Below, piece after piece: positions 6,966-63,056 of a DNA stretch of 64,000 nucleotides. Made by a program: the position numbers and the translations under genes. The notes below the pieces were generated by a model. That model saw only the letters and a program-made list of their open reading frames with translations. It made no database searches and had not been told where the DNA came from. The DNA is from Candidatus Dojkabacteria bacterium (lineage in GTDB: Bacteria > Patescibacteriota > Dojkabacteria > JAOAGR01): positions 514,135 through 578,134 of the forward strand of contig AP026679.1 in the NCBI GenBank assembly GCA_025999155.1, given 5' to 3'. Numbering within the stretch: the first letter of the stretch is position 1; the number at the start of each line of letters is the position of its first letter.

Positions 6966-8513
6966 TCATTCTAAGTTGCTCACGTTGTATACTCTATTGA
7001 GTGTTTGTTTATATTCATGTTCATTGGGCTTAAGTAATCTTATCGTCCCGTTTTGTCTAAGATCTAATTGATGTGGATGGAGTTTGTAATTTATAAGTTT
7101 ATTCCCATATAGAGTGACTTCGATTGTCATACCTTGCATGGTTTCAATACTCCAATCTTGATCAAACACAAAATTCCCTACAGAATAAAATACTGGTCTA
7201 CCTTCTATATATTCGATTTCCTGGACCCAATGAGGATGATCTCCAAAAATTATATCCGCTCCGTTCTTGATTAGTAAATTAGCTAAGAGTCGTGTATAGT
7301 CTGTTGGCTGAGGAGTATATTCGACACCTCCCCAATGCATGATGACAATTATAAGATCAGGATTTAAATCCTTTGCTTTTTGCATAAAGTATTTTATCCG
7401 CTCAATATTTGGTTCATACTTAATGGTATTACCATTCTCGTCAATTTCCCAGTCAGATATATTCGCGCTTCCTGGATAATTTTTACCAGCCCATTGTTCT
7501 CTACCAGGAGTATCGTTAAATGCTAGATAGGCTATTTTTAACCCATTGATTTCTACGAGTACTGGCTTAGCTGCATCATCATTGTTTATTACTGACGCTC
7601 CTGTATATTTAATGTTGATTTCACTTAGTTTACGTTGAGTATTGGAGAGAGCTTCAACACCCCCATCCATTATATGATTTGATGCAAGAGAAAAAAAATC
7701 AATACCTGAATACTCTATTGCATTCATAAAATCATCTGCTCCTACGAATTGCATGCATTTAATGCATGGTCTTCCTTTCCCTAAAACAGGTGCTTCAAAA
7801 GTACTACTTACAAAGTCCATACTATCAAATAAAGGTTTTGTAGTAAGAAATAACCTCTTGAAATCACCATTAAACTTGTTACGAATGTAATATTCTACTA
7901 GCCGTGCAGGAATCATAGATCCAGTATGACCTATTGTTGTAATCTTAGCTTGTGTAATGTTAGACTCATCTGTTTTTGGTGAAGATGATTCCAATTCTTG
8001 TATGTATTTTAATTTATAGTCTAAAATGTTTGAATTTCTATCCAATATATCAATATTTTCAAATCTAATAGTTTTAAGCCTAAAGTGTAAGTTAGAAAAA
8101 TTTAAGATACCTACTTGATCTATATTAGAGTTTAAGTAACGAGATAATTCATCAAAATTACTGAATAAATCAAATTTAACATTGTAGTCGTACAACAATG
8201 TTTTCAATACCGGTTCATCTTCTTTTAAAATAGCTATCTGTCTATTTTGTAAATCATTAAAAGTTATATTATCAATGTAGCTTTTTATCGCGACCACAGG
8301 AGCAAAATATGTTATTTTTTTGTATTTATAAACTTGATTAGGAGAATCCGGATTTATACTTACAGAAGAAATATCCTGCTTTCTATATTTAGAGTAGCTC
8401 AAAGCAAAACATATACCGAATACAGAGCCTAGTACTAGCAATGAAATCGTAAAAAATATCAGAATACGTCGCATAATTTCCGTATTATAACACTGCACCA
8501 AGCGCTGATACAT
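6966..8513 (-). CDS. capA: CapA/PgsA-family (PGA_cap) capsule-biosynthesis metallophosphoesterase-like protein, membrane anchored
   Basis: 515 aa with an N-terminal TM (ILIFFTISLLVLGSVFGICFAL). The motifs HTGSMIP, FFSLASNHIMDGG, GADIIFGDHPHWVQ and PVFYSVGNFVFDQ match the CapA signature (GHHPHVLQ...FYSLGNF). Confidence 0.7.
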   Translation of the reverse strand: MYQRLVQCYNTEIMRRILIFFTISLLVLGSVFGICFALSYSKYRKQDISSVSINPDSPNQVYKYKKITYFAPVVAIKSYIDNITFNDLQNRQIAILKEDEPVLKTLLYDYNVKFDLFSNFDELSRYLNSNIDQVGILNFSNLHFRLKTIRFENIDILDRNSNILDYKLKYIQELESSSPKTDESNITQAKITTIGHTGSMIPARLVEYYIRNKFNGDFKRLFLTTKPLFDSMDFVSSTFEAPVLGKGRPCIKCMQFVGADDFMNAIEYSGIDFFSLASNHIMDGGVEALSNTQRKLSEINIKYTGASVINNDDAAKPVLVEINGLKIAYLAFNDTPGREQWAGKNYPGSANISDWEIDENGNTIKYEPNIERIKYFMQKAKDLNPDLIIVIMHWGGVEYTPQPTDYTRLLANLLIKNGADIIFGDHPHWVQEIEYIEGRPVFYSVGNFVFDQDWSIETMQGMTIEVTLYGNKLINYKLHPHQLDLRQNGTIRLLKPNEHEYKQTLNRVYNVSNLE

Positions 8514-8570
8514 ATTAATTAGTTTTTTATGTTAGAATATGGAAAAATTTTACTGTGAGAATCCAAAAAG

Positions 8571-9890
8571 GTGGTTGTAATCTATGTTTTAAAACTTTTT
8601 ATTTTTTTATTGAGAACTTTTACTTCTAATTCAGCTACAGCTTTACCTGGTTTGATATTGGAAAGATTTTTTCCGCGGATTGTGAAGAGAATATTTAATC
8701 AATTTAACAAAGTCATATTAATCACTGGCACTAATGGTAAAACTACGACGACTCATATGATTTGTTATTTGCTTCAACAAAATGGAATAAAAACGATAAC
8801 AAATCCAAGTGGTTCTAACCTCATACGTGGAATTATATCTGCTATCGTTGATAGAATGGACATTTTTGGGCGAGTAGATGCTCAAGTTGGTGTTTTTGAA
8901 ATGGAGGAGGGTAGTATTCGGAAAATAATTAAATTTATAAGCCCAGATATCATCGTCGTGACAAATATTTTTAGGGATCAACTCGATGCATATGGAGAAA
9001 TTGATAAAACTTATAAGTATATTAAAGAAGCTGTTGAAGGATCTAATGATCCAATATTAATTTTAAATGGTGATGATTTTCGTGTAGCAGATTTAAAGCA
9101 TTATACTCGAAATACCATTATAGAAATACAAGTGGACCATCAGTATATTTCTCAAATTAAATTAGAAAAAAATCCTTTTGTGGAGAAAACGTCAAACAAT
9201 ACTCTGAATGAAGGTAGATTAGAAAAATTTCTAATTAAAAATGTCAAAGTGGGTCGGGATTTGTCAGTGACGTTTGATTTGTGTGGAGATGTCACAAACT
9301 TTTTAGACAATCGTATAAAAGTACCTGGTTTACATAATGCGATCAATGCTGCTTTGGCTATTTTGACTGTAAGAGAGACACTTTCTTTTCCAAATATGAA
9401 TTTGAATTTAGAAGATTTCAATCCCGTATTTGGTAGAGGGGAAATAATTGAGTTAAAAGATAAAAAGAATGGTATAAATAAAAATTTTCAGATACTTTTA
9501 GCCAAAAATCCGGCAGGGATGAATTTAAATTTACATTTACTTACTCATTGTCCCTTACAGGATGCAGCGGTTTTAATTCTTCTAAATGATAAGATTGCTG
9601 ATGGTCGGGATGTCTCTTGGATCTGGGATGTAGATTTTAGACTTCTAAAAAGATTTGATCCTTCAGATATTTACATTAGTGGTATGAGAAGATGGGATCT
9701 AGCTGTCAGACTAAAATATGAAGGGTTTACAGTGAAAGCAGAAAATATTTTTGACAATATCGAAAAGGCTTTGGTTCAAATTAGGGCATCAAAAATATAT
9801 GTTTTACCAACATATACTGCTATGCTTGAGTTTCGTCATGCCATAAGTAAATTTACACAAGTAAAAGCAATGTGGAGATCCAATGGATAA
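8571..9890 (+). CDS. murT: Lipid II isoglutaminyl synthase subunit MurT (Mur-ligase-like domain + DUF1727)
   Basis: P-loop ILITGTNGKTTTTHM and a Mur ligase central domain with a C-terminal extension. It is immediately followed by, and overlaps 8 nt with, a GatD-like amidotransferase. Confidence 0.7.
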   Translation: MVVIYVLKLFIFLLRTFTSNSATALPGLILERFFPRIVKRIFNQFNKVILITGTNGKTTTTHMICYLLQQNGIKTITNPSGSNLIRGIISAIVDRMDIFGRVDAQVGVFEMEEGSIRKIIKFISPDIIVVTNIFRDQLDAYGEIDKTYKYIKEAVEGSNDPILILNGDDFRVADLKHYTRNTIIEIQVDHQYISQIKLEKNPFVEKTSNNTLNEGRLEKFLIKNVKVGRDLSVTFDLCGDVTNFLDNRIKVPGLHNAINAALAILTVRETLSFPNMNLNLEDFNPVFGRGEIIELKDKKNGINKNFQILLAKNPAGMNLNLHLLTHCPLQDAAVLILLNDKIADGRDVSWIWDVDFRLLKRFDPSDIYISGMRRWDLAVRLKYEGFTVKAENIFDNIEKALVQIRASKIYVLPTYTAMLEFRHAISKFTQVKAMWRSNG

Positions 9891-32074: not shown

Positions 32075-33400
32075 TTAATTGTATTTTTCGGCAGTTGTTG
32101 GAAATGGGTTTACTAGCACCTCCGGCCGATCGGGAAATCGCCCTAGAATTTCTTCTGCTGCTTTGAGTACATATGTTCTTACGCCGTCATCCAATAATAT
32201 TAACTTGGACCCACCATCAGATGATGTACCCTTCAAAACATCTCCGAACACACCCTTAATAAAGAGATATTCAGGACCTATATAAGGTGGATGCCCCACT
32301 ATTAATCCTTCCGATGCATTTCTCTGTATATTATCTAAAAACGACATCAGATTCCAGGTCCATCCCTGAATTCGACCAGTGGTTTCTATATATAGCTTTG
32401 GTCCGCCATTTCGTGTGCTTTTCCTATTCAGATAAACTGTAGACAAACCTATTCCTGCATTATTAGGGCGCAATACAGGTATTCGCCAAAACGCAATAAG
32501 ACCCTGATCCTGATTAAAGGTTTCCCCATCAGGATTAATTTTCTGCAGTTCCATGTGAAAATCTACAGCAGTTTGAACAAACTGATTTCGGTCATCAATA
32601 CTTGCAGCTATACATCTGAATATATTGCTCACATCTATTATAGGATGCTTATACACCCACTCCAGTGCCCTTCCTATATTCGTATGTATACCACGATTTT
32701 CCTTGCTTTCCAACATCGCCCAGACCCAGACGGCAGCGAATGATGAAGCCACATATAAAACAGGTATCGAATGTTCAGGATCCTTCGGTGTCACATGTAC
32801 TCCGAAAGAATCCTCCGAAGGATGATAATACAAAATACTTTTTTGTGGGAAATTTTGATATGTTCCTTGCTCGAGCTGTTGTAGCAGTAGCGCAGATGCT
32901 ACGATCCTCAGACTATCAAATCTTTCCCGATTTTGTTTATCCTGGTATTCTGCAAAAGTTGGACTACCTCGGTACCGAGGTCCTCTTAATGCGTCGACTA
33001 AATTTCTCAATGCAGTAGGAGACATTGTAGCTGTTGATGCCATTGTCCCAGGGCGAATATATGGCAATAACCACTTAGGAACAAGATTCTCTCGGGTAGT
33101 CGCTAAGATATTACTAGAGAACTTTATTACACAAGGTTCATACCCTTTTGCCAACAAACCTTCCATTTTTTGTCTGTAGCATCCTACTGCTTGATCTCCG
33201 CTAAGATTATGGTACGCGCCGTTTACTGGAACCTGTTCGGAAGGCCACATTTCGGATACCCCCACGTACCCTCTATACCGATTTCTACGAAGATCATAAC
33301 CCTTGTATGCCGAACCACCAATATTGTAATATTGCGTTTCTAGGATACCTTCTAGGAATTGTTCTGCGTTGATCCCCAAATAATTATAGATCGATTTCAT
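32075..33400 (-). CDS. Hypothetical protein, no recognisable family; locally elevated GC
   Basis: A 441-aa ORF with only short ORFs on the opposite strand. Its composition (about 43% GC) differs from the flanks (33-37%). No motifs recognised. Confidence 0.6.
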   Translation of the reverse strand: MKSIYNYLGINAEQFLEGILETQYYNIGGSAYKGYDLRRNRYRGYVGVSEMWPSEQVPVNGAYHNLSGDQAVGCYRQKMEGLLAKGYEPCVIKFSSNILATTRENLVPKWLLPYIRPGTMASTATMSPTALRNLVDALRGPRYRGSPTFAEYQDKQNRERFDSLRIVASALLLQQLEQGTYQNFPQKSILYYHPSEDSFGVHVTPKDPEHSIPVLYVASSFAAVWVWAMLESKENRGIHTNIGRALEWVYKHPIIDVSNIFRCIAASIDDRNQFVQTAVDFHMELQKINPDGETFNQDQGLIAFWRIPVLRPNNAGIGLSTVYLNRKSTRNGGPKLYIETTGRIQGWTWNLMSFLDNIQRNASEGLIVGHPPYIGPEYLFIKGVFGDVLKGTSSDGGSKLILLDDGVRTYVLKAAEEILGRFPDRPEVLVNPFPTTAEKYN

Positions 33401-48710: not shown

Positions 48711-50612
48711 ATGAAAAAGAAATCACATCAGAAAAAGAATGATAGTAAATTTAAACCATTGCAGGTTCGGGGCATAGGTCGTGTCAGTAATAACAGACCT
48801 TGGTACAAGAGTCCTATTCTATGGATTTTTGTAATAACTATACTTTCTGCATTTATATTTCGTTTTTTTGTATTTCAAAATACTCAGCAGGTCGATTATG
48901 CAACATTAATTAAGACCATTAAAAGTCAAGAATATCAAAAAGTACAAATTCAGGGTCAGATCGTCCAGATTTTCCCTAAAAATCAGGAAGATAAAGTGAT
49001 CGTAGGTACTATTGCGGATCCTAATTCTTTCCGTGAAGATTTGCGTCTTGTGAATGTCGATCCTGAGACTGCAAATATTTATTTTTTACAAGAATCGAAT
49101 ATCGACATTTTTACCATAATAAGTGTTGTGTTGTTTGCCTTGTTTATAGGTCTTTTCGGGTATAGTTTAATTTCAGCCCGTAATATTGCTTCTTCCGGTC
49201 CTATAATGGGATTTGGGGACACAAGAGCAAAATTATTTGTAGGAGAAAAACAAGATATTAAATTTGATCAAGTCAAAGGTATAGATGAGGCAGTTGAAGA
49301 AGTAAAAGAAATCGTTAACTTTCTTCAAAATCCTGAAAAATACATCAAGATTGGAGCTCGTATACCAAAAGGAGTGTTATTAGTAGGGGCACCTGGTACA
49401 GGAAAGACTTTATTAGCACGTGCAATTGCTGGAGAAGCTGGTGTCCCTTTCTTTTTTACGTCAGGTTCTGAGTTTGAGGAGATGCTGGTAGGTACTGGCG
49501 CATCTAGGGTGCGTGATCTGTTTAACAAAGCAAAAGATGCCGCACCTGCAATTATTTTTATCGATGAAATTGATTCAATAGCTCGTAAGCGAGGAACTGT
49601 AATTTATTCTGGTAATACTGAACAAACTCTAAATCAGATCCTTGTTGAAATGGATGGTTTTGATAAGAACACGAATGTAATCGTAATAGCTGCGACTAAT
49701 CGACCTGATGTGCTTGATCCTGCGATATTGAGGCCTGGTAGGTTTGATCGAAGGGTTGTGTTGGATTTACCTGATATTAAGGGTAGAGAAGAGATATTAA
49801 AAGTTCATGCTGCTAATAAACCTTTGGCTACGGATATCGATTTGCATATTGTCGCAAAACGAACAATTGGTTTTAGTGGCGCAGATTTAGAAAATATGTT
49901 GAATGAGGCAGCTATTATAGCAGTTAAAGAAGGCCGAGAAGAAATCACATATACGGATATTGAAGAGGCAGCAATAAAAGTGACAGTTGGTCCTGCGAAA
50001 AAAAGAGCAAAATCAGAGAAAATGAAAAAGCTTACTGCATACCATGAAGCTGGTCATGCAATTGCTGGTTATTTTATGGAGGAAGCAGACAGAGTGCACC
50101 GTATTTCTATCGTCTCGCGAGGATATACAGGAGGTGTGACAATGTATTTACCTAATGAAGATGTTGAAGAATTAAAGACAGAGAAAAAGTTTTTTGCAGA
50201 GCTTGTTGTACTTTATGGTGGTAGAACAGCGGAAAAGTTGGTTTTCGGCGATGTATCAACGGGGGCAAGTTCGGATATTCAAAGAGCCACTAAAATTGCC
50301 CGAGACATGGTTAAAAAGTACGGAATGTCTACTTTGGGTTACATTGATTTTGATGATACTGAAGACTCTTATGTTGGTCGTCATGTTTATTCGGATAGAA
50401 CTGCAGAACAAATTGACCAGGAAGTTAGAAATATACTTACTCAAGCTCAGGAAAGGTGTGAGAATATATTAACAGCGCATCGTGATAGTTTAGACATGAT
50501 AGCTGGGATTTTGATAGAAAAAGAAGTTATCGAAGGAGATGAATTCTATCAACTGATGGAAGGAAATGCACGGAATAAAGGGGATAATGAAGAAGATAAT
50601 AAAGATAAATAG
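48711..50612 (+). CDS. ftsH: ATP-dependent zinc metalloprotease FtsH
   Basis: N-terminal TM, periplasmic region, second TM. AAA Walker [29 protein letters not shown], Walker [12 protein letters not shown], and the zinc site HEAGHA. Confidence 0.9.
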
Positions 50613-50659
50613 AATTAATAAAGGATATAAATAGTGCAAGTTTAATTTTTAGTTTTTTA

Positions 50660-50920
50660 ATGTTTAAAGTATGCACAATGGGTAACGAGAATTGGATTAT
50701 AGAAGTTAAAGCTATTTTACTAATATTAGCTATATGTTCGCTTTTTTATATTTTTCTATTTACGCTTGTACATTTGACCTCAAGCCCTGAGAAAAGACCA
50801 CCTTACTTGTTTTGGGATGATAGAAGACAGGGTTATACTAAAGATATTCTGGAGGACAGATATTGGGAAATACGTGAACAAAAAGAAAAGGAAAATATTT
50901 ACCAGGGACAAAATGAATAG
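50660..50920 (+). CDS. Possible small single-TM protein
   Basis: An 86-aa ORF downstream of ftsH with one hydrophobic helix (ILLILAICSLFYIFLFTLV). No homology recognised. Confidence 0.3.
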   Translation: MFKVCTMGNENWIIEVKAILLILAICSLFYIFLFTLVHLTSSPEKRPPYLFWDDRRQGYTKDILEDRYWEIREQKEKENIYQGQNE

Positions 50921-51004
50921 TGAATATTTTTTCGTCAAATTAATTCTTATACTAATTAGCTTCAGTTTGGAAAATACTGCCACATAATTTTAGAATGTAG
51001 TGTT

Positions 51005-52366
51005 TTATACTGTTTTGTGCTTACTTATTCTTTGTCCTGCAATTCGATCTAGATCACTTGGGAATAAAACAGCTTCTCTGATGTTTTTAAGCCGAAATAT
51101 TTGTTGTGTCATTCGCTCTAAACCAAATGAAAACCCTGCTTCATAAGGTATACCGTACTTAAATGCTTCTAAATAGTGTTCATAATACTCAAGAGTTAAC
51201 CCTTGATTCTTCATATTTTCCACTAATTTATTGTAATCATGAATACGATGAGTACCAGATAACCATTCAAGACCTCTGCATACTAGATCGAAGCTGAGAG
51301 ATTCATCTGGATCCTCCGGGTTATTACGAGTGTAAAAATTTTTGTCTTTCTTAAAATTTAATATCCATAAAAAATCAGATCCATATTCCTCTAAAGCCCA
51401 CTCAGCAATCAACCTTTCATCTTGCGGGTCAAGATCTAACTCTGGCCTTTGAGCTGATTTTCCGGCCTTTTTTTCAATTATTTGTAACGCCTCTTTGACT
51501 TTGACTTTCGGGAATCTAGATGCTGGAAGTTGAGGCAAAGTAGTGTTCCACAATTGTAATTCCTTGCTATAGTTATTATCTAAGTGATTAAAAATTTTTC
51601 TGACTACACGTTCGATAATTTCTAGACATTCATCATAGTCTTCTATAAAACCTACTTCTCCGTCCATCTGCGTAATTTCCATCAAATGACGAGTAGTGTT
51701 ATGTTTTTCAGCTCGAAAAACTGGCGTTATGGTGAAAACCCTTTCGAAAACTCCCACCATTATTTGCTTATATACTTGCGGACTTTGAGCTAGATATGCT
51801 TTATGATCATAATACTTGACTTCAAAGACCGAAGCTCCACTTTCAGATGGGGCTCCCATAAGTACAGGTGATCTAAATTCTATGAAGCCTTCTTCAATCA
51901 TTGCATTTCTGAAAGCTGTCAGTATTCCAGCTTGTACCTTAAATATAGCCTTTTGTTTTTCATGCCGTAATGTTACTGGGCGGTGATCTATAATAGTATC
52001 TAAATGAGCGTCAAGAGAATCTTTATTTATTTCTACAGGCACTTGATCAAGGACAGGGGATATCACCTCAATCTCTGAAACATGAACTTCTAAACCCTCT
52101 TTATCAGGCTTTTTTATTACATACCCGCGGATGCTAAGAACAGACTCGACTTGTAAATGCTTGATAGAGTCTATTTGCTGTGCATTTAGTACACATTGTA
52201 CAAATCCAGTACTATCACGCAATAGCAAAAATCCTAATTTACCTAGGATACGAAGCCTATGCATCCACCCAGCAACTAGTACATATTGATCGATATGTTT
52301 ATTTAAGTCCTTAATTAGAGTTCTTTCACGCATAGTATATACATCCCACAATTGTACAATGAACAT
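51005..52366 (-). CDS. aspS: Aspartate--tRNA ligase, compact archaeal/eukaryal-type (possibly non-discriminating)
   Basis: 453 aa with an N-terminal OB domain. Motif 2 reads FRAEKHNTTRHLMEITQMDGE. Motif 3 reads LSGTHRIHDYN...FGLERM. GS.RIH is the AspRS signature rather than the AsnRS one. An alternative start lies at the Met at 52331-52333. Confidence 0.75.
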   Translation of the reverse strand: MFIVQLWDVYTMRERTLIKDLNKHIDQYVLVAGWMHRLRILGKLGFLLLRDSTGFVQCVLNAQQIDSIKHLQVESVLSIRGYVIKKPDKEGLEVHVSEIEVISPVLDQVPVEINKDSLDAHLDTIIDHRPVTLRHEKQKAIFKVQAGILTAFRNAMIEEGFIEFRSPVLMGAPSESGASVFEVKYYDHKAYLAQSPQVYKQIMVGVFERVFTITPVFRAEKHNTTRHLMEITQMDGEVGFIEDYDECLEIIERVVRKIFNHLDNNYSKELQLWNTTLPQLPASRFPKVKVKEALQIIEKKAGKSAQRPELDLDPQDERLIAEWALEEYGSDFLWILNFKKDKNFYTRNNPEDPDESLSFDLVCRGLEWLSGTHRIHDYNKLVENMKNQGLTLEYYEHYLEAFKYGIPYEAGFSFGLERMTQQIFRLKNIREAVLFPSDLDRIAGQRISKHKTV

Positions 52367-52385
52367 TCATCCAGCGCTGTATAAT

Positions 52386-52826
52386 TTATTGGCTAGGTAT
52401 AGCTTGTTGATAACCAATCATTGCTCCATATACACTATTAACAATCGTTAACAACAACCCAATTACAGATATTATAAGAGCGACGATTGCGATTGTACGT
52501 TTAGTTTGAGATCGCATTCCGAAGATAGAGCATGCGATTCCAGCAACAGCTGTTGGACATCCACATAAAGGAATAAGCCATGCCACTAAGGAAAATATAG
52601 ATGCTATCAACCCGCCTATAGCTAATCGATCATATGTTAAAGAGTCGGATTGAACAGATTGGTACATTTGTGTACTGTTTACTACAGTTTGTTGCAGCGT
52701 AGGCGTCGTCGTGGCATTGTAATTTGGTGAATATCCGTTATATGCTTGATTTGGGTTTTGTGTCGGTATCTGAGTACCTTGTATTGACCCTGGTTGTGGA
52801 TTGTTTTGTTGTTGGCTTGGTTCCAT
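52386..52826 (-). CDS. DUF4190-like small membrane protein (Q/N/P-rich N-terminus, two C-terminal TM helices)
   Basis: 146 aa. MEPSQQQNNPQPGSIQGTQIPTQNPN... is followed by LAIGGLIASIFSLVAWLIPLCGCPTAVAGIACSIFGMRS and a second TM. Confidence 0.5.
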   Translation of the reverse strand: MEPSQQQNNPQPGSIQGTQIPTQNPNQAYNGYSPNYNATTTPTLQQTVVNSTQMYQSVQSDSLTYDRLAIGGLIASIFSLVAWLIPLCGCPTAVAGIACSIFGMRSQTKRTIAIVALIISVIGLLLTIVNSVYGAMIGYQQAIPSQ

Positions 52827-53115
52827 GTTCTTTGTTTAAGTTAATTAAAAATCCTGCATAGTCTAACATACTAATGGTTATTTGCAATATATTTGTGTAA
52901 AAGATGTATAAATAATTCTGTATTTATTTGTTCTAAAGCATCTTGTAGTTATTTTAGATTACTTAATAGGTGATCAATACAATTGTCATTGAATTTTGAG
53001 GTAGATATGATCCAACCGGTAGGCATGAATGTAGAATAAAGTTTATGCAACAACGAAAACCTACAAATATATTTGATTTAATGTCATGATATTTTGTTTC
53101 TTTTACGTCCTTTCA

Positions 53116-53288
53116 ATCTCTGAAACTTGGACCTCTAAACCGTGTTTATTAGGACTTTTATTACACACCCACGGATGCTAAGAACAGACTCGACTTGCAA
53201 ATGCTTGATAGAGTCTATTTGTTGTGCATTAGTACACATTGTACAAATCCAGTACTATCACGCAATAGCAAAAAGCCTAGGCATCGAC
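53116..53288 (-). pseudogene. Truncated duplicate of the aspS 5' region (about 90% identical to 52071-52268)
   Basis: Direct alignment by eye: atctctgaaacttggacctctaaacc...ggatgctaagaacagactcgacttgcaaatgcttgatagagtctatttgttgtgcatt agtacacattgtacaaatccagtactatcacgcaatagcaaaaagcctag versus the aspS copy. No intact ORF. Confidence 0.6.
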
Positions 53289-53524
53289 TCTACAATAATG
53301 ACTTCTCGATATACATGATGATTCAATAATTAGTTAAAACTAAAATTACACAACCTGAAAGCACGTTTGTGTAGTAAATGTGTTATCTAACATAAATGAG
53401 TCAATCCAAAACATGATCTTTATCTGCTTTGTACATGCTGCTGGTACATCTCTTCTAGCACAAGTGTATTAGCGAGTGAGTGAAAAATATGCTTCAAACA
53501 GATATTAATAAAAGTACTATGGTA

Positions 53525-53885
53525 GACAGCATAATACCAATAATCGCCAGTATGCGTTTTGAATGAGATCACATTCCGAAAATACAGCTCACGAGTGCAC
53601 CAATTGGTATTGGAGATCTTAGTATGGGATGAAACAACTACGTTACTAATGCCACCATAGCGGCGTTTAAGCCTCCGACAACCAATTTATCATACATGGA
53701 AGAATTCGAAGGATCAGATGAGAATTCGGGGTCCATAGGGTCATTATTGTCCGTTAAAATGCATTGTTGTAGCATGTGCTGTGTGGGCATTGTCGTAGCG
53801 TTCGGAGTTAATCGAGATTTACAGGTTTGGTTCGTCTTGCATTGGCCTTCGATTGTTTTGTTCTGTTGTTTGCATATTTCCTTGC
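53525..53885 (-). pseudogene. Decayed paralog/duplicate of the DUF4190-like gene (about 60-65% identical to 52450-52830)
   Basis: Recognisable colinear similarity (gagatcacattccgaaaatacagctc.. versus gagatcgcattccgaagatagagcat.., and so on). It sits at the same offset (about 1.05-1.08 kb) as the aspS fragment and has no ORF of 60 aa or more on the minus strand. Confidence 0.45.
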
Positions 53886-54080
53886 TAAAATCAATACAAA
53901 TCCATTAAGTTAGCATAATACTGATTGTTTGTAATATATGCTGTCCTCAGTCCTGCGCATTATTCAAACTATATTCGAGCTTGTGTGCTGGTAGTGTAAA
54001 TAATAGTATATTAATTCGGGATTGAGGCTTATTTTTGTTTTTTTTTTGATATTTTTGGATATATTTGATATAATAAGTGC

Positions 54081-55727
54081 ATGAAGCAAACAAAATTTAC
54101 AAATACCTTCAAGTTAATGTCTTTATATTCTGTGTTTCTTGCGTCCTTTGTGATGCTTATATATTTCGTTGCTGCTCGGTTTGTAACAAACGCATCGTCT
54201 AGCAATTACTCTATAAGATTTAATGGTACTGCTTCTTCATATGTCAGTATACCTTTAGATAACGCTCCGTCTTTAAATGTGGGTGCTGGCGATTTTACTA
54301 TAGAGTGGTGGATGCAACCTGTATCAGTGTCTACTAGTACATCATGTAGTAGTGTAGCAGATGCTTTTACTCAGGGGCATCTTATATTTGATAGGGATAT
54401 CTTTGGACCTGGAGACTACGGTGATTTTGGAATTTCTTTGATGGCAGACCGTCGGTTAGCTTTTAGCGCACATAATGGCACTAGTGGGATTACAGCATGT
54501 TCATCAGTATTGAATCTTAATCAGTGGTATTACATAGCAGCAGTGCGTTCGGGAAATCAGATCCGCATCTATGTAAATGGTACATTAGATGACACTCGTA
54601 CTATATCAGGAGATTTAAGTTACAGGACTGGTAGATCTACTAGCTACTCGGCTGATCCTTTGATAGTCTTAGGGGCAGAGAAGCACACGGCTGTAGGAGG
54701 AGAAACATTCACCGCATACCACTATAACGGTTATTTAGATGAGTTACGCCTATCAAATATAGCTCGTACAATATCTGGGTCTCCCACAACTCCTTTCGTT
54801 GTGGATGGTAATACTGTAGCTCTTTTCCGATTTGAAAATAATGTAAATAGTGAACTTGGCTCAATTCCTGGTTTGACTTCGTCATCCGTGACATATTCTA
54901 CCGATGTGCCACCTTTTGATACAACTCCAACCCCAAGTGATACTCCGACTCCAAGCGATACGCCAACTCCAAGTGATACGCCAACCCCAAGCGATACGCC
55001 AACCCCAAGCGATACGCCAACTCCAAGTGATACGCCAACCCCAAGCGATACGCCAACTCCAAGTGATACGCCAACCCCAAGTGATACCCCAACTCCAAGT
55101 GGCACTCCAACCCCAAGTGATACCCCAACTCCAAGTGGTACTCCAACCCCAAGTGATACCCCAACTCCAAGTGGCACTCCAACCCCAAGTGATACCCCAA
55201 CTCCAAGTGGCACTCCAACCCCAAGTGATACCCCAACTCCAAGTGGCACTCCAACCCCAAGTGATACCCCAACTCCAAGTGGTACACCAACTCCAACCCG
55301 CACTCCGACTCACACAAACACACCGATAGCTACAATACCTGCCACCTCACCTACACAGGCCCCGACATATGTATGGAGACAGGATGATACTCCGATTTAT
55401 TATTCCGATAACAATTCTAGTGTAATTTATTATTCCGATAACAATTCTAGTGTAACGTCTACTGTCTCTCCGACACATTCTTCTCAAACTCAAACCCCTA
55501 CTGTTCCATCAGATCCTAATAGAGAAGATAAGTTAAGCGTTAGAGATGGTAGAGATGGTGAGGAACCTAATGACGTAGCTTCGCAATCTAACGGAAGCCA
55601 GGAAAACACAGAAAATAACGGTACGATTTCATGGCTTAATCCGACGTTTCTCACTATTGCTTGTGTGGTCGGTCTCTTGATCTTGCTGATAATTTTTATC
55701 ATATACTACAGGAGATCAAGAGATTAG
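54081..55727 (+). CDS. Cell-surface protein: N-terminal signal/TM, LamG (concanavalin A-like lectin, Laminin_G_3) domain, (TPTPSD/G)n linker, C-terminal TM anchor
   Basis: The LamG_3 signature reads [57 protein letters not shown]. There are 21 tandem TPTPS[DG] hexapeptides. The C-terminus is [26 protein letters not shown]. Confidence 0.7.
54922..55300. repeat. Coding tandem repeat, 18-bp unit x ~21 (ACNCCAACYCCAAGYGRY encoding TPTPSD / TPTPSG), with a 36-bp higher-order unit in the distal half
   Basis: The proximal copies are acgccaac(c/t)ccaag(c/t)gat (TPTPSD). The distal copies alternate accccaactccaagtggcact / ccaaccccaagtgat ([12 protein letters not shown]). Confidence 0.9.
55396..55455. 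repeat. Perfect 30-bp tandem duplication (tttattattccgataacaattctagtgtaa x2) inside the same gene, encoding [10 protein letters not shown] twice
   Basis: Two identical adjacent 30-mers on the plus strand. Confidence 0.85.
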
Positions 55728-57299
55728 TTGGCTATTAGTTTTTATATAACGTAGCAGTTTTAATCTGATGTTATCATATGAAGGTCAAGGTCTGCATGTC
55801 TGTTACTACGCGGGTTGTTACAATTCTCCATAAAAGTCTATTAATGCAGGGTTAGCTTTAATCGGCATGTGAACAAGGTTAGAAAAATCAGAAAACATAT
55901 CAAAGTGATAATAAGACTTATTCAGAAAAAACATTGAAAGCACTTAAATTTGCTTGTACAAAGTCTAATGTTAGTAAAGGATAACTATGCTGCATTTAAA
56001 TTTGTTTGTATATAAAGACTTCTATACGGGCGAAAATGCCTTGAGGATGTGATGGGTGTATTAATCGTGGTGTGAGAAATATTTATAGTCCGTGCAGTAC
56101 TAATAAAGCGGCCTTTCAATAAAGCAGGCGTTGAATCCGTGAGCCGGATTGATATACGTCTATACGAAATGGGTTATCCTAAGATGCTGTTCGGTGAGTT
56201 TTTCTATGAATTTGCAAGGATGTGGTCATAGGTGTTTACTTCCCACGTGATAAAAAGTAGTTTACGGTCCATAGTTCATCTCGTATAAATATTGATATTT
56301 GGGGTCATGTCACTGTCGTAGGAGTAGTCATAAAATAGACGTCTATATCAATGGAGTGACGTATTATTTGGGATAATCGAATGTCCTCTACACTATAATC
56401 GTAAAGGATACTTGTGTATATATATTTAACCGTTCGTACGTTGGTTCTGTGATAGACAATAATAGTTATTCAGATATCGGTATTAGAGAAAAAGTTTATA
56501 AAATAACCCATTACTGTCACTAGGGAAAAGCAAAAGAGTTTTAATTATGATTAGATTCAAAATTTCGCGGGTAGCTCGAGTCTTTGTTCAGATGATCTAA
56601 AGAATCATCTAAATATCGATGCAGATAAGTCTTCTCTATTCATCCGGACCCTTGTGACTTTCAGTGCTTATCTACAACAACCGATTTGTCGTTGATTTGG
56701 GTCCTACGAACTGGATGCTATTGCAAGTATAATATTGTCCGGATTAAAAACTGGTTGCTGAATGATTCCGTTGAGTTTCCATGTATATTCTATTTCCGTG
56801 CATTACCTCGCACAAATAGGACACCTCATTTTTCATTTTCTAGTCAATTTATTTGAGTTGGACACGTACCAATTAATCTAGTTTGTTTCTATCATGTATA
56901 CAAATCTGCATGGTATAATTGTCGGTGGTCGATCTACATAAATTTGTATGGGTTGAACATGTATCTCCTATAGATAAAGTATGGGTATTATTCTAGGAAT
57001 GGAGCCTTAGTTTGTGAAGTGATGTGGTGTCCAATGCTTTGGAGTTGTTTCACAGACAACAATCATATTTGGTCAGAAACATTTTTCTCTTATTGAATTT
57101 AAAGATTGGGTAGCATTTTTTGTTTTTTGCATGTGTTATACAGATATAAGAATAAATAACATTCTTATACGCCACGACTTTTTAGTACTGATAAGCTGTT
57201 CATTGCGTTATAATAATAATTAAAGAGTTGATTTTTGAATCTATGGAATGTATTACAAAAGGGTAAATATTAAAATTGTATAATCTTTAGTAAGAAGTC

Positions 57300-58412
57300 A
57301 TGTTAAATAGATTGAGAAACTACTTGAGGAGTTTGTTTAGGAATCAATCTACACACATAAATATTGATTCGTCTATATACGATAACCTAGTGCTATTTTT
57401 ACAGGTTAGTATGCATGATTTGATTAAATTTGAGTCAAAACTGTTGTCAAAAGCTTTGGATGACGTGGCAAATGACTTCCAACTAGGATACCAAATTTTG
57501 AATTATAATTTTGATGGTATCAAAAATAATAAGCCAAGCCAAATTATCTTGATTCCTCCAAAATATGAGTTATGGCCGTATTTATTTTTAGCAATTAAGT
57601 TTGTGTCTGTAGGTATAGAAGTCAATTTTCTGTATTTCGGTTGGGCTAAAAATATTATTAAATTATTGGAAAAACATAAAAAGTCAAAGGAATATGAATC
57701 ATTGCGCTTTTTTGATGTGGAAGAATTTACACTTTCCCAAGGGCGTGGAACTTTGACTCTTAATTTTAGCGAGTCTATTAACGGGATTTACGCTAATATC
57801 CCTACTTTCTCCACTGTCGTTGTCAGTAAACATGCGGATATAGATTTTGCCTTAGCCTACATTCTTAATCATGCTTTCAGTTTTGCTGGGCTTAAAAATT
57901 CAAATATAAAGCGAGTGATACTTGATAAAGAGTGTGAGCAAACATTTCTTGATAAACTTTCAAATCGAATTCAATTTGGTATTGATACAAATTTGTCTCA
58001 GATAACCTCTCAAATATTTATCGATAAGATGCAACAAAGTATATTGGAGGCTATTTCGGATGGAGCTGAATTATTTTTTGGGACTCCTGAATTTATTGCA
58101 AAAAGTTATCCTCAGAATTTAATTCTGAATAAAATTACTCCAAATATGTCTATTTTTCAGAAAAAAATATATGGTCCTTTGCTTATGATTCTTGCTACTG
58201 ATTTCGAGATATCACAGCTCGAAATGGTGCTGAAAAAGCAGCCATCAAAAGGTATTATAGTATTTGGTGACGAACAGCAAGTTGGCGCTTTCTTACCAAG
58301 AAATACAGAACTGTATTATGTATACAGATATCCTCATCAGCAATTAAAGCGTCATAATATTATTTTTGAAAATCCTGCATTGGAGTACGTATTCGAATCA
58401 TTAGGCTGGTAG
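57300..58412 (+). CDS. Hypothetical cytoplasmic protein
   Basis: A 370-aa ORF with no confident motif. It has a weak resemblance to the aldehyde-dehydrogenase-like fold around AFSFAGLKNSNIKRVIL but lacks a catalytic Cys. Confidence 0.45.
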   Translation: MLNRLRNYLRSLFRNQSTHINIDSSIYDNLVLFLQVSMHDLIKFESKLLSKALDDVANDFQLGYQILNYNFDGIKNNKPSQIILIPPKYELWPYLFLAIKFVSVGIEVNFLYFGWAKNIIKLLEKHKKSKEYESLRFFDVEEFTLSQGRGTLTLNFSESINGIYANIPTFSTVVVSKHADIDFALAYILNHAFSFAGLKNSNIKRVILDKECEQTFLDKLSNRIQFGIDTNLSQITSQIFIDKMQQSILEAISDGAELFFGTPEFIAKSYPQNLILNKITPNMSIFQKKIYGPLLMILATDFEISQLEMVLKKQPSKGIIVFGDEQQVGAFLPRNTELYYVYRYPHQQLKRHNIIFENPALEYVFESLGW

Positions 58413-58420
58413 AACTGATC

Positions 58421-58687
58421 TTATGCATTAGATACCGGAGGTACTACGATGTATTTTCCCTTCATTTCCTGTAAGTGTATGTCAATATGAGCCTCATCTT
58501 TTCTTAAATCGCTTATGTTAACTTTTTTACGAAGTATGCTACCATTACTTGTGAATTCCGCTCTTTTGATCTTATCAAACATTTTCAGAATCAATAGTAC
58601 ATCTTTGTTAAAGTTTTTGAGATGAGAGACATGTATTTTGAGCATAGATAGAAGTTTTTGAATTTGATTTTTGTCAACTGTGTGCAT
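58421..58687 (-). CDS. Hypothetical small protein
   Basis: An 88-aa ORF 19 nt downstream of, and co-directional with, the 435-aa gene. No motifs. Confidence 0.3.
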   Translation of the reverse strand: MHTVDKNQIQKLLSMLKIHVSHLKNFNKDVLLILKMFDKIKRAEFTSNGSILRKKVNISDLRKDEAHIDIHLQEMKGKYIVVPPVSNA

Positions 58688-58706
58688 AAATCTTAATCTC
58701 GTATAC

Positions 58707-60014
58707 TTATAATAATAAGTAAGACTCAGCTATAGCTGGTACATAATAATTTAGAATGTATTTTTTGCCAAGATGCTGACACTCCACTATAAAAACATAA
58801 ACTGGTTGAATGTATTTTGAAAATATCGGCTCTTCATAAAAGGCTAGCTTTACAGTGAGAACATCAACTAATTCTACTCCTTCAAGTGATTGGGGTTCAA
58901 TATCTACACCAGTAGCTGAGTCTTTTGCGGATATAAGAAAAGCTTCATGATTGGTTAATCTTTTATATGCCTCTTGTGGAGTTATAATAGGGTAAGTTTG
59001 TATATCTTGATTTTTCATAGGATCAGAGGTGCTGATGGGCCATGCATATAATTTCAATTCGACTAATTGATCAAGCACTTTTGTGTTTTTTGTATCAAAT
59101 TGATCTCGTAGATCGCTGTTTATTAATATTATGTAGATGTTTGAAACTCCATCTTCTGGGTAGACCGCATAAGCCTTTGATTTTGAGTCTCCCTTAGATA
59201 AGTTTGGATAAGACCTTATTGCTTCGATCCTATAATATGAACTTTGAGAGGTTTCACTTATTACGAATTTATTTTTGACAGGATCATAATTAAGGTATTG
59301 TATGGTAAAAATATATGAATCTAATGGGAAAGAATATTTAAATTCAACAAGCACTCTTCTGAATAAATTTTTAAGAATGTCTTGGTTAACGTTTGTCAGA
59401 ATCGTTGTGGTGTACTGAGGTGTAGCAGATGTTTTAAGATTTTCATTAGAATACTCTATAGTCTTATATTGACCATTAATGAGTAGTTTTCTGCCACCTT
59501 CTTGCCAGAGTCGCGTAGTATTCGATATCTCTTGTGGAGATTGAGAAAAATTTAATTCTCGTGCAATTCTTAAGGGTTCTTGGGTAGTACTTAAGTCTAT
59601 CGGTTGCTCTATTATACGATATACATTTGCAATAGGAGACTGCGTATTCTCTAACGGGTAGCCATTTTCAGCGTTTAAGTTTCCGGACACAGTACTTATC
59701 CGAAATCTACTTGGTTTGAAGTCTTCAAAGCCTGATTTAGTTTTCAAATTCAAGGGAGGTATTGGGCCGTACCCCACTTCAGGCTTTATTGCACCAACTT
59801 CTACATCTTTGACTGCTAGGCTGTCAGATACAAGTTGAAATATACGTATCCCTGTACATATTACTAGTATAAAGGCCAAAGCGACGAAAACTCTTTTTGT
59901 CCAATATATGTCAGTATATAAACTCACGTAATATTCTAACATACATATATGAAATGTGAATTTATATTTTGTGTTTTGTTTGTTATTCACAATGAATAAC
60001 ACTTTGATTCTCAA
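58707..60014 (-). CDS. Hypothetical membrane-anchored extracytoplasmic protein
   Basis: 435 aa. An N-terminal region with a TM (VFVALAFILVICTGIRIF) is followed by a large, probably extracellular domain. It is divergent from the LCP gene. Confidence 0.5.
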   Translation of the reverse strand: MRIKVLFIVNNKQNTKYKFTFHICMLEYYVSLYTDIYWTKRVFVALAFILVICTGIRIFQLVSDSLAVKDVEVGAIKPEVGYGPIPPLNLKTKSGFEDFKPSRFRISTVSGNLNAENGYPLENTQSPIANVYRIIEQPIDLSTTQEPLRIARELNFSQSPQEISNTTRLWQEGGRKLLINGQYKTIEYSNENLKTSATPQYTTTILTNVNQDILKNLFRRVLVEFKYSFPLDSYIFTIQYLNYDPVKNKFVISETSQSSYYRIEAIRSYPNLSKGDSKSKAYAVYPEDGVSNIYIILINSDLRDQFDTKNTKVLDQLVELKLYAWPISTSDPMKNQDIQTYPIITPQEAYKRLTNHEAFLISAKDSATGVDIEPQSLEGVELVDVLTVKLAFYEEPIFSKYIQPVYVFIVECQHLGKKYILNYYVPAIAESYLLL

Positions 60015-60108
60015 GGGGAAAGTGAATAAAAATAGAGGTGATTTGTTATAATCAGAAGAATACAGTATTATTCATTGAGTTTAGTAGTCTAATACAAAGT
60101 CTAATGTT

Positions 60109-61671
60109 ATGAAGTTGAGTAGCATAAAAGGGGCGACTGGGCATAAAATAAGATCCTCTAAAAAAAGTAAGAAACAGAGTATTCATAATAATTATCGGAA
60201 TAATATTCCTAAGGTCTCTTTATATAATTTATCAGGTTTATTTGCTGCTGCATCTAAAAATTCCGTTTTGCGTAAAGGTACAGTGCTTAGTGTGCTTGCA
60301 ATATTAGTCTTTGTTATATCATTTAGTTTTTTCTTCGGTCTTCAAAAATTTAAAAATATTCAGTCAACAGGTATTGAGAACATTGATGTATTTGATCTTT
60401 TGGATATTGGTAATGCTGCATCTCATCAAGCCGGGAACAATAGCTTAGGTAGATTAAATCAAACAAATGGAAAAACTAATGTTTTAATTATTGGTGTAGA
60501 TACGCGTTCTAAAGGTCAATCCCTTTTAACTGATAGTATAATTGTTTTCTCTTACGATCATAGAGATAACTCAGCTCTACAAATTTCAATTCCACGAGAT
60601 TTAAGAGTTCGATACGGTAATGGTTATACCAAAATTAACTCTGTGTTCTCATTTGCATATTCAGATGGAGTAATGCCAAGGAATACAAATAACAATGATG
60701 CTTTTAAAAAAGGATTTGATGAGCTAATTGCGTCTATCCACGAAGTTACAGGGCTTGATATTCACTACGGGGTAATGGTAAATTTCCTCGCTTTTAAAGA
60801 AATTATTGATGTATTAGGTGGTATAGATGTTTATGTTGAAACACCCTTTACTGACTACACTTATCCAAATGATTATGATACTGGTGTGATGACAGTTTCT
60901 TTTGAACAAGGTTTGCAAACTATGGATGGGAAAAGAGCTTTACAATTTGTAAGGTCACGACATGGCAATAATGGTGAGGGAAGTGATTATGCAAGATCTA
61001 AAAGACAACAGATTGTGATTAATGCAATAAGGGAGAAAATAAACAAAACGGACATATTGTCAAAACCAGAGTTGATTTATGGTATTGTGGATAGTTTGCT
61101 TAAAAATGTGAGGTTATACAAGGTCGATAAAATAGTTATTGAATCAGTTGTTAGTAGTAAAAATATACTTAGCAATACTCAAATAATAGGTATAGTTCTG
61201 GATCCTTATGCAGGCAGTTATTTGGGGCAATTGTTTAAAACTGGGGAAATGGAGGATATTGGCTGGCATATCTATCCGACAAAAGGTGATTTTACAAATG
61301 TAAATAATTACATTGCTATCATTAATGGCAATAGAGGACTTGCTGCCGAAAAAGCTCAAGTTATGCTTATTTATTCTGATATTAAACGTTATAACGATTA
61401 CGTTAAGATGAAAAAGTTATTCTTTGAGTACTATTTACCATTTGAATTCAATGACTATGTCTATAACATTGACACCATAGTCAACTCGGAAAACGATGAT
61501 CCTTCTGGAGTTATAATCTATTCTGATGGGCAAAAGAACGCTACTCTCGATTTTTACAAATCTTTGCTAGATAAAGCCGGTATTCACTATAGAATCGAAC
61601 AAAGCTCATCTGCTCCGAGAGATCTATATAAAATGACAAAAGAAAAGAATGTAGTGATTTTGTTAAATTAG
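60109..61671 (+). CDS. LCP family (LytR-CpsA-Psr) cell-wall glycopolymer phosphotransferase
   Basis: An N-terminal basic cytoplasmic tail and a TM, then VLIIGVDTRSKGQSLLTDSIIVFSYDHRDNSALQISIPRDLRV...GYTKINSVFSF and RSRHGNNGEGSDYARSKRQQ (LCP core with conserved Arg/Asp). Confidence 0.75.
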   Translation: MKLSSIKGATGHKIRSSKKSKKQSIHNNYRNNIPKVSLYNLSGLFAAASKNSVLRKGTVLSVLAILVFVISFSFFFGLQKFKNIQSTGIENIDVFDLLDIGNAASHQAGNNSLGRLNQTNGKTNVLIIGVDTRSKGQSLLTDSIIVFSYDHRDNSALQISIPRDLRVRYGNGYTKINSVFSFAYSDGVMPRNTNNNDAFKKGFDELIASIHEVTGLDIHYGVMVNFLAFKEIIDVLGGIDVYVETPFTDYTYPNDYDTGVMTVSFEQGLQTMDGKRALQFVRSRHGNNGEGSDYARSKRQQIVINAIREKINKTDILSKPELIYGIVDSLLKNVRLYKVDKIVIESVVSSKNILSNTQIIGIVLDPYAGSYLGQLFKTGEMEDIGWHIYPTKGDFTNVNNYIAIINGNRGLAAEKAQVMLIYSDIKRYNDYVKMKKLFFEYYLPFEFNDYVYNIDTIVNSENDDPSGVIIYSDGQKNATLDFYKSLLDKAGIHYRIEQSSSAPRDLYKMTKEKNVVILLN

Positions 61672-62471
61672 GGTTGTATGCAATTAGTCCAAATGTTTTG
61701 AACCTCGTCTAGTTCTTCTATGGTTTCTATAAATTTCTCGACATCGTTATAATGTTGTGGGTCAATTGTTATCGGTGTAGTTGATTCCTTAATTAGTCCC
61801 GCTTCATAAATTTCGTACCCTAGTGATTCTATCAATTTTTTGATGTTGTGTAGTTTTGGATATTCAGTTTTTATTTGTAAACCTATTTCGTCAGCGATTA
61901 CGTCAATGAGTCCTTCATGATCAAGCAAGTTAAGTATAAACTCTTCTGCATTTTCTCGTTTTAATCGTATCTTGTTATTAGTATTTCGATCTTTCCATGT
62001 TTGTTTATCTTCGTTTTGATCTTGTGTGGAGGCTTCGAATCTAATGAGTATGTTGCCTATTGTTCGAAATTGCCATGAGACTGCTCCAGATTCGGTAAAT
62101 CTCCCTCCATGTTTTTCCACAGCATGACGAACTTCACTTAAAGTCCTATTTTTATTATCTGTAATGCAATCAATCAATATAGCTACGTTATGGGGACCAT
62201 AAGCTTCATATGTTACTTCTTCTATTTTTGTACCTCCTGATGTATTACCTAAACCTCGGTTAATAGCTCTTTGGATATTATCGTTCGGCATATTTATAGA
62301 TTTTGCCTTTTCGATAGCGAGCGCTAATGAAGGATTACTATCAGGATCGCCCCCCCCATTTTGGGCAGCTACGGTAATCATCTGTGCTACCTTAGTAAAC
62401 ATTTTTGCTTTTGCAGCGTCATTTGCTGCTTTTTTTCTTTTTATAGTGCTCCATTTAGAATGACCAGACAT
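61668..62471 (-). CDS. yebC: YebC/PmpR family DNA-binding transcriptional regulator
   Basis: MSGHSKWSTIKRKKAANDAAKAKMFTKVAQMITVAAQNGGGDP is the hallmark N-terminus. The protein is 267 aa and has a ~30-aa charged insertion. Confidence 0.9.
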   Translation of the reverse strand: MSGHSKWSTIKRKKAANDAAKAKMFTKVAQMITVAAQNGGGDPDSNPSLALAIEKAKSINMPNDNIQRAINRGLGNTSGGTKIEEVTYEAYGPHNVAILIDCITDNKNRTLSEVRHAVEKHGGRFTESGAVSWQFRTIGNILIRFEASTQDQNEDKQTWKDRNTNNKIRLKRENAEEFILNLLDHEGLIDVIADEIGLQIKTEYPKLHNIKKLIESLGYEIYEAGLIKESTTPITIDPQHYNDVEKFIETIEELDEVQNIWTNCIQP

Positions 62472-62528
62472 GCGTTTACATCTATCCGGGAATTATAGAA
62501 TACGGTAGTTTAAAAAGTAAAGTTTGTA

Positions 62529-63056
62529 TTAAATATTATCATGTTGATATTTACGAACCAATTCAATCATATATTTGCTTATTTTACCCCATCTTTGGAA
62601 TTTATAAGCCATCTCTTCCACATCAAAGAAATCTCGTGCAAGGATATAGCCAGTAGCGGGATCCTTAGTTTGTGGTAGAATTTTTGCTATTTTTGCAACA
62701 AACCACATTTCCGTATGTTTTCTTACAAACCTTGTAATATGATTTATAAACTCAATTTCTAGAAATCCAATTAGTTTGTAATTTTTAATTTCTATATCAG
62801 CTTCCTCTTGTAGCTCCCTTTTTAAAGCAAGTATTGGATTTTCTCCATCTTCAACCGTGCCGCCTGGTACCATCCAATATACTATACCGTCATGTGATAC
62901 CATGCATACCAAATTTTCATCATTTAGTGCAATGCATCGGACTTTTCTAATGTTGTCAAAGTATTTAGAATCTAACAACTCATTTGTTGGATAAAATTTA
63001 TAGTGCATGATTTTACTCTTCATGCGTCGTTTATATTCAATGAACTTTAGTGACAT
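62529..63056 (-). CDS. NUDIX hydrolase
   Basis: Nudix box GGTVEDGENPILALKRELQEEADIE (GGx5Ex7REUxEExGU). Confidence 0.8.
   Translation of the reverse strand: MSLKFIEYKRRMKSKIMHYKFYPTNELLDSKYFDNIRKVRCIALNDENLVCMVSHDGIVYWMVPGGTVEDGENPILALKRELQEEADIEIKNYKLIGFLEIEFINHITRFVRKHTEMWFVAKIAKILPQTKDPATGYILARDFFDVEEMAYKFQRWGKISKYMIELVRKYQHDNI

Follow-up and report, generated by a model that had tools for sequence, protein, structure and literature searches.

What fills a 1572-bp gap beside a LamG surface-protein gene in a small CPR genome? A reading as apparently unconstrained spacer DNA followed by a conserved, promoter-like region

Bacteria of the Candidate Phyla Radiation (CPR/Patescibacteria) have small genomes, and the source of the DNA analysed here, a Candidatus Dojkabacteria bacterium, is one of them. 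Positions 55728-57299 of a 64,000-nt stretch of its contig AP026679.1 (hereafter the window) hold 1572 bp in which no gene is recognisable, between the gene of a LamG-type surface protein and a gene with a partial match to the aldehyde dehydrogenase family (Aldedh-like). The locus thereby raises the question of what occupies so long an interval: an eroded gene, a mobile-element remnant and a long non-coding RNA had been put forward as candidates in an earlier note on this DNA. The explanation that we consider reasonably probable is a composite one, in which a core of 981 bp (part B) is unconstrained spacer DNA and the last 470 bp (part C) provide the promoter and leader of the downstream gene. 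The gap is in this respect largely ordinary, and the kind of thing it represents is already known.

The absence of coding sequence from the gap is easily verified, although its significance lies elsewhere than might be expected. As the earlier note had stated, not a single open reading frame (ORF) of at least 60 aa overlaps 55728-57299, the longest in six frames being one of 56 aa on the + strand (56686-56856). A longest ORF of 56 aa or less was obtained in 35% of 1000 shuffles of the gap's composition, and stop codons in the six frames number 210, against 228 ± 11 in shuffles. The ORF lengths of the gap thus match random expectation, and its unusual point is the length of the non-coding DNA, not the absence of ORFs within it. 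Once ORFs of at least 100 aa are masked, no other stretch left uncovered in the window is as long (1566 bp); the second-largest, at 52836-54068, measures 1233 bp, and every other is shorter than 600 bp. Reassignment of stop codons was also considered: treating UGA, UAG or UAA as sense, any one or two at a time, opens no long frame, so recoding is not the explanation, and all three stop codons are used by genes of the window.

The region is present in near-identical strains. Logan contig DRR290133_461567 matches it at 100% identity, and contig SRR12784215_47439 (L002) and the 98-kb JGI contig Ga0401068_000233 (L013) do so at about 98.4%, with one 1-nt indel; SRR12784215, the source of L002, is a hot-spring microbial-mat metagenome (PMC7729410). 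A stretch of 1572-1573 bp, collinear with both flanking genes, is thus common to three independent assemblies from different sequencing projects, and the probability that it represents an assembly artefact or a chimera is therefore practically nil.

Comparison with a more distant relative, L005, in which about 1 kb separates the corresponding genes, divides the gap into three parts (Table 1). The first of these, part A, and the last, part C, have counterparts there: blastn aligns window positions 55702-55847 with L005 444-591 at 71% identity, and C is 74% identical to L005 1022-1493 over 495 nt. Part B has none, an unrelated and very AT-rich piece of 430 bp standing in its place in L005, and no DNA or tblastx similarity to B was found in L003, in L005-L008 or in the rest of the window, relaxed settings included. 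The orthologous Aldedh-like proteins of the window and L005 share only 64% identity; at such a distance no alignment would be expected of DNA free of constraint, and the alignability of A and C therefore argues that they are constrained. B and the middle piece of L005 may be unrelated insertions, or they may represent a single neutral spacer that has diverged beyond recognition. The identities of the LytR protein encoded downstream (86% between the window and L003, 77% and 76% between L005 and the window and L003, respectively) place L003 and the window closer to each other than either is to L005, and they suggest that A and C are probably ancestral and were lost in L003, whose 546-bp spacer resembles no part of the gap.

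The composition of these segments differs as well. GC content is 35.8% in B and 29.7% in C, compared with 34% in the window as a whole, 30.7% in the pooled other intergenic DNA, 25.8% at third codon positions, 26.7% in the L003 spacer and 24.7% in the middle piece of L005.

The evidence on constraint comes from an alignment of window positions 50000-62600 with L013 1-19776, which are about 8% diverged overall in a mosaic manner, tracts of about 1% alternating with far more divergent ones (Table 1). The LamG gene itself differs by about 9-11%, and by 21% at third positions, with both of its flanks at about 1%. A mosaic of this kind is what recent homologous recombination typically produces around a surface gene that diversifies, and the gap sits inside a recently exchanged tract. 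Within this low-divergence tract, differences number 22 over 1512 positions of the gap, compared with 17 over the 2688 positions of the three genes downstream (odds ratio 2.3, p 0.011). Even the third codon positions nearby, with 5/896, fall short of the 18/981 counted in B (odds ratio 3.3, p 0.012), indicating that B changes no more slowly than the coding sites under least constraint; given the small counts and possibly differing tract ages, this is absence of evidence for constraint and not proof of neutrality. Part C, with four differences in 471 positions, is not distinguishable from neutral at this scale.

It is the comparison with L005 that reveals the conservation of part C, which the earlier note overlooked together with its promoter-like signals for the downstream gene. 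Matches between C and L005 are produced by tblastx in all six frames, so that the similarity is one at the DNA level. A small conserved ORF was considered and rejected: L005 has a 54-aa ORF at 1119-1283, in which the window shows two in-frame stops, and mismatches over this ORF are spread over the codon phases as 14/14/11. With no codon-phase bias and with in-frame stops, it is the DNA or RNA of C that is conserved and not a protein. The block of C with the highest conservation ends in the nonamer TGGTATAAT, which has the form of an extended -10 box (TGnTATAAT), lies on the strand of the gene and is identical in the relative, as expected of a sigma-70-type promoter. The window has 10 copies of the exact motif TGNTATAAT, and of the 9 others, 4 precede the start codons of FtsH, LamG, LytR and a gene ending at 33400, at a distance of 7-57 nt and on the correct strand. 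Judged by these features, the box in C is a probable promoter, from which a leader of about 375 nt would be transcribed. Closer to the gene there is a second TATAAT (57279-57284), 15 nt upstream of the Aldedh-like ATG, and a 45-nt stretch around this ATG (57275-57320) is identical in L005; these would constitute a second, proximal set of start signals. The simplest reading of C is that of a promoter, leader and translation-start region which the Aldedh-like gene may have acquired, or retained, after its separation from LamG. A comparable arrangement is seen at the LamG gene, where TGATATAAT at 54066-54074 ends 6 nt before the ATG (54081); the LamG and Aldedh-like mRNAs may accordingly be leaderless or carry very short leaders. 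As to part A, no stable or conserved terminator hairpin was detected in it (fold z +1.28; 0 sites in a terminator scan), and, to judge from its position only, it would represent the 3' end of the LamG transcript.

The history of the spacer can be followed across relatives. The Aldedh-like gene begins 5 nt behind its upstream neighbour in L006 and 3 nt behind it in L008/L009, a LamG-type gene standing directly upstream in both cases, and the distance is 14 nt in L011, 74 nt in L010 and 97 nt in L007. It rises to hundreds of base pairs in L003, to about 1 kb in L005 and to 1572-1573 bp in the window, L002 and L013, which indicates a clade-specific expansion of an originally tiny spacer. This expansion separated the two genes, and the downstream gene would now use a promoter region of its own. 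Of the checks named in the earlier note, tblastx and protein comparisons yielded no remnant and Rfam no match, and synteny confines the expansion to this clade. Neither of the two findings that would have spoken against the note was made, since near-identical strains do carry the region and Rfam has no hit in it.

A possible mechanism is offered 2 kb upstream, in the other long gap of the window (Table 1). The decayed duplication mentioned in the earlier note is confirmed there: 53113-53719 aligns with 52068-52659 at 64% identity over 618 nt, with patches of 83-98%, and the source segment covers the 5' end of the AsnRS gene and the 3' part of a 146-aa gene. Both ends of that gap (52831-53099 and 53854-54116) have counterparts, at 74-78% identity, in the 508-bp L003 spacer, and their conservation suggests a constrained divergent promoter region serving the 146-aa gene and LamG. 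The immediate neighbourhood thus provides a documented case of local duplication with subsequent decay. By analogy, B may be what is left, without function, of an insertion or local duplication after erosion has made it unrecognisable; this would be the end state of a process caught half-way at 53100-53853, where the duplicated AsnRS/146-aa segment can still be recognised. In part C, selection would have kept the signals at which transcription and translation of the Aldedh-like gene start. The idea of a local hotspot of decay or rearrangement around the LamG gene, also voiced in the earlier note, finds support in the clade-confined expansion, the decayed duplication and the recombination mosaic between strains.

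Several observations weigh against this combination of a functionless core and a promoter region. As bacteria with small genomes tend to delete useless DNA, the retention of 1 kb is a little surprising. The searches yielded no source sequence for B, and, unlike 53100-53853, it is not a duplicate of adjacent sequence that could be recognised anywhere in the window, even with relaxed settings, so that an origin by insertion or duplication is hypothetical. The coding-like GC content of B is well above that of the other long spacers and of third codon positions; since it has not relaxed to their AT-rich level, B does not appear to be at mutational equilibrium, which suggests either a fairly recent arrival or constraint of a sort that the tests cannot see. 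The divergence test itself amounts to some 20 substitutions on a recombination mosaic whose tracts may differ in age. Finally, the activity of the conserved boxes as promoters is predicted from the sequence only, and L003, where C was lost or replaced, still has the gene intact, so that C is not indispensable.

The composition of B, the gene fragments decaying 2 kb upstream and the extra genes, including one for a heliorhodopsin, that L008 carries in what is a hotspot of gene gain and loss among the relatives would all suit a different origin, in which one or more protein-coding genes once stood between LamG and the Aldedh-like gene and decayed to what is now B, leaving only a trace of codon periodicity. 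Such a trace may exist: in the sub-stretch 55848-56207 (+ strand) a weak three-base periodicity (base-by-phase chi2 21.5, reached by 4.5% of shuffles after scanning) is accompanied by a phase-0 composition like that of codon position 1, with a stop density that is not significant, and it is possible that this is the last vestige of a + strand reading frame. Nevertheless, a six-frame Pfam scan gave nothing credible in B, and a concatenated six-frame query searched against 5.8 billion proteins, returned zero matches at E<=10. The longest protein-like open piece, 51 aa in the frame of the periodicity (56076-56228), gave two hits in an exhaustive HMMER search, P0063 and P0064, which are translated tandem-repeat DNA scoring by the sum of weak repeats and were discounted as spurious. 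Scored by a 3-periodic Markov model that was trained on the window's own genes, the gap has a coding potential of -3.1, close to the -2.7 of shuffles and far from the +5 to +10 of real genes; stop density in B is random in all frames, and no gene stands between the LamG-type and Aldedh-like genes in L003, L005, L006 or L008/L009. An eroded gene is on this balance unlikely, though it deserves to be kept in mind. Far less credible is the remnant of a mobile element, be it an insertion sequence (IS), a miniature inverted-repeat transposable element (MITE) or a fragment of a prophage or integrative element. Although B is insertion-like in its absence from L003 and L005 and lies in a recombination-active locus, neither terminal inverted repeats nor target-site duplications at its borders were detected, only short chance-level repeats; no second copy was found within the 64-kb window, and no trace of a transposase, integrase or phage protein by Pfam or among the 5.8 billion proteins. 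Searches of phages and plasmids with blastn gave no match for B, three exact 21-23-mers from its GC-richer parts no viral contig, and no tRNA adjoins the gap. Among other possible identities, an origin of replication (oriC) was rejected, the gap holding one DnaA box with one mismatch among 35 spread across the window and the cumulative GC skew climbing steadily through the region. There are likewise no tandem or regularly spaced repeat families in 55728-57299, and hence no CRISPR or other repeat array.

A functional non-coding RNA might take one of two forms here, either a long and weakly structured transcript over B or a shorter product of about 200 nt, a small RNA or 5' leader, that starts from the extended -10 box and comprises block C1. 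The latter draws some plausibility from the 70-90% conservation of C1 with L005, from its position directly 3' of the conserved box and from the T-rich run that follows at 57113-57131. For the former, one may point to the GC content of B, higher than that of other spacers, and to an excess of G over C on the + strand, though the whole window has the same skew. The RNA-specific tests speak otherwise. At E<=1, Rfam 15, whose families include riboswitches, ribozymes, introns and 6S RNA, has 0 matches in 52300-57500 and nothing in the corresponding parts of L003 and L005, the only matches at gathering score being two tRNAs elsewhere in the window, and ARAGORN gave no match in the gap, in agreement with the absence of tRNA, RNase P, tmRNA or SRP hallmarks reported by the earlier note. 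Against dinucleotide shuffles, the minimum free energy of B has z values of +0.69 (+ strand) and +0.61 (- strand), that of C1 reaches -0.68, and none of the 200-nt windows inside the gap falls below -2 on either strand, most being zero or positive. RNAalifold gave no supported structure for C1 (covariation term +4.8; 1-2 compensatory pairs against many broken in L005) and did no better on the minus strand, in a comparison that had two effectively different sequences for C and none for B. If the organism lives in a hot-spring mat like its close relative L002, a structural RNA would be expected to form a GC-rich island; the maximum GC per 75 nt in the gap is 0.48, compared with 0.56-0.58 for the two tRNAs. 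To this may be added the divergence of B between two strains, 2-3 times faster than that of neighbouring coding DNA and free of any sign of purifying selection, and the loss of C in L003. A functional RNA in either form is accordingly improbable. It is nevertheless intriguing to speculate that the spacer is not junk, and that the box at 56911-56919 drives a clade-specific, weakly structured regulatory RNA (a leader or small RNA) of about 200-375 nt that controls the Aldedh-like/LytR cell-envelope cluster, or that B, its GC maintained, is a long non-coding RNA outside Rfam in a CPR bacterium of hot springs; little credence is given to this idea.

The preferred reading, an unconstrained core followed by a promoter and leader region, has parallels in known systems, none of them complete. 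Long "junk" spacers of decaying non-coding DNA have been described in Rickettsia and Mycobacterium leprae, and B would resemble them in being long and ORF-free, with random-like stops, without homologues or purifying selection, and in lying beside a decaying duplication. In contrast to those spacers, where the dead gene can usually be identified by its intact orthologues, no relative has a gene at the position of B and no source was found, and B has kept a GC content above the AT-rich level of the other spacers. Part C is comparable to bacterial extended -10 promoters with a long 5' leader, given its TGGTATAAT box, its second TATAAT, the start block identical in L005 and the presence of the same type of box before other genes. 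Unlike such leaders, the putative leader in C matches no riboswitch, T-box or other leader family of Rfam and shows no conserved fold. With the large structured non-coding RNAs of Rfam (such as OLE, GOLLD, ROOL, HEARO and raiA) the gap shares only its size class and its location in a dense genome; it differs from them in the lack of any covariance-model match at E<=1, of a stability signal, of GC enrichment and of covariation in the two sequences compared for C, and in a core confined to one lineage.

Beyond annotation the result matters little; for annotators it means that no missed gene or RNA gene is to be expected here. It does illustrate that spacers of kilobase size, apparently free of constraint, can occur at recombination-active surface-protein loci even where a CPR genome is very small. 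The conserved 470-bp region is worth watching: should it contain a regulated leader or small RNA, this would be one of the few regulatory RNAs proposed for this poorly known group.

Table 1. Features of the gap and its surroundings in window coordinates, with divergence between the window and L013
Feature	Position	Strand	Description
Part A	55728-55847	+	120 bp directly 3' of LamG stop; alignable with L005
Part B	55848-56828	none	981 bp; lineage-specific, non-coding, apparently unconstrained core
Part C	56829-57299	+	Conserved non-coding region 5' of Aldedh-like gene (predicted promoter and leader)
Best-conserved block of C	56876-56919	+	87-90% identity to L005 in 30-nt windows; ends in TGGTATAAT
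Extended -10 box TGGTATAAT	56911-56919	+	Identical in L005; 381 nt upstream of Aldedh-like ATG
Block C1	56926-57105	+	180 nt; 70-83% identity to L005; candidate 5' leader or small RNA
Indel-bearing stretch of low conservation	57110-57200	+	Between C1 and C2
Block C2	57200-57299	+	Promoter-proximal and translation-start region (predicted); sliding identity to L005 0.9-1.0
LamG (Laminin_G_3) surface-protein gene	54081-55727	+	548 aa; Pfam PF13385, E 2e-17; upstream flank
Aldedh-like gene	57300-58412	+	370 aa; Pfam PF00171, E 9.5e-13, partial aldehyde-dehydrogenase-family match; downstream flank
Second long gap	52827-54080	none	Apparently a conserved divergent-promoter spacer, interrupted by a 754-bp decayed tandem duplication (53100-53853)
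Window-L013 divergence	50600-51500		4-21%
Window-L013 divergence	51500-53300		About 1%
Window-L013 divergence	53300-55400		5-16%; most of LamG
Window-L013 divergence	55400-61100		About 1%
Window-L013 divergence	beyond 61100		5-26%

The flanking genes, whose identities agree with those given in the earlier note, belong to a gene order conserved in relatives: LTD protein, FtsH, AsnRS-type synthetase, LamG, Aldedh-like, 88-aa, 411-aa, LytR, YebC and NUDIX. Homologues of the 370-aa Aldedh-like protein are few and sit in this conserved neighbourhood, one of them on a 723-kb contig, and its sole named relatives come from Candidatus Saccharibacteria (40% identity) and Dojkabacteria (37%). A scan of genome contigs with the single protein found no further relatives; the same scan with an alignment as query retrieved only distant Saccharibacteria and Dojkabacteria loci, and a metagenome scan with one 24-mer from the conserved start region returned just the L005 contig again. 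In L005 the Aldedh-like gene is split at 1473-2580 into ORFs of 42 and 260 aa, which may reflect a pseudogene frameshift or an assembly error in this contig of a metagenome-assembled genome. The L005 spacer seemed to hold an inverted fragment of the Aldedh-like gene (E 2e-4), but this match did not reappear in a comparison with L005's own gene and was dropped.

Some further peculiarities of the neighbouring genes were recorded. The LamG gene contains an 18/36-nt tandem-repeat linker at 54924-55296, with about 20 copies of the 18-nt unit (10 of the 36-nt unit), as well as a perfect 30-nt tandem duplication at 55395-55454, and the length of its repeat region varies between strains (165 gap columns in the alignment with L013). 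In the more distant syntenic relative L008, a heliorhodopsin gene and several small ORFs lie at 7862-8659 between the AsnRS and LamG-type genes, marking the zone between these two genes as a site of gene gain and loss across the group. The 88-aa protein (58421-58687) is 48-50% identical to its orthologues in L003 and L005, which share 78% with each other, in contrast to LytR with its 86% between the window and L003; its gene either evolved fast in the window lineage or was replaced. For the gene that follows, the mechanical ORF at 58707-60014 has 435 aa and a TTG start, and gene callers give 411 aa on an identical contig (L001 3282-4517), so that its start codon is uncertain.

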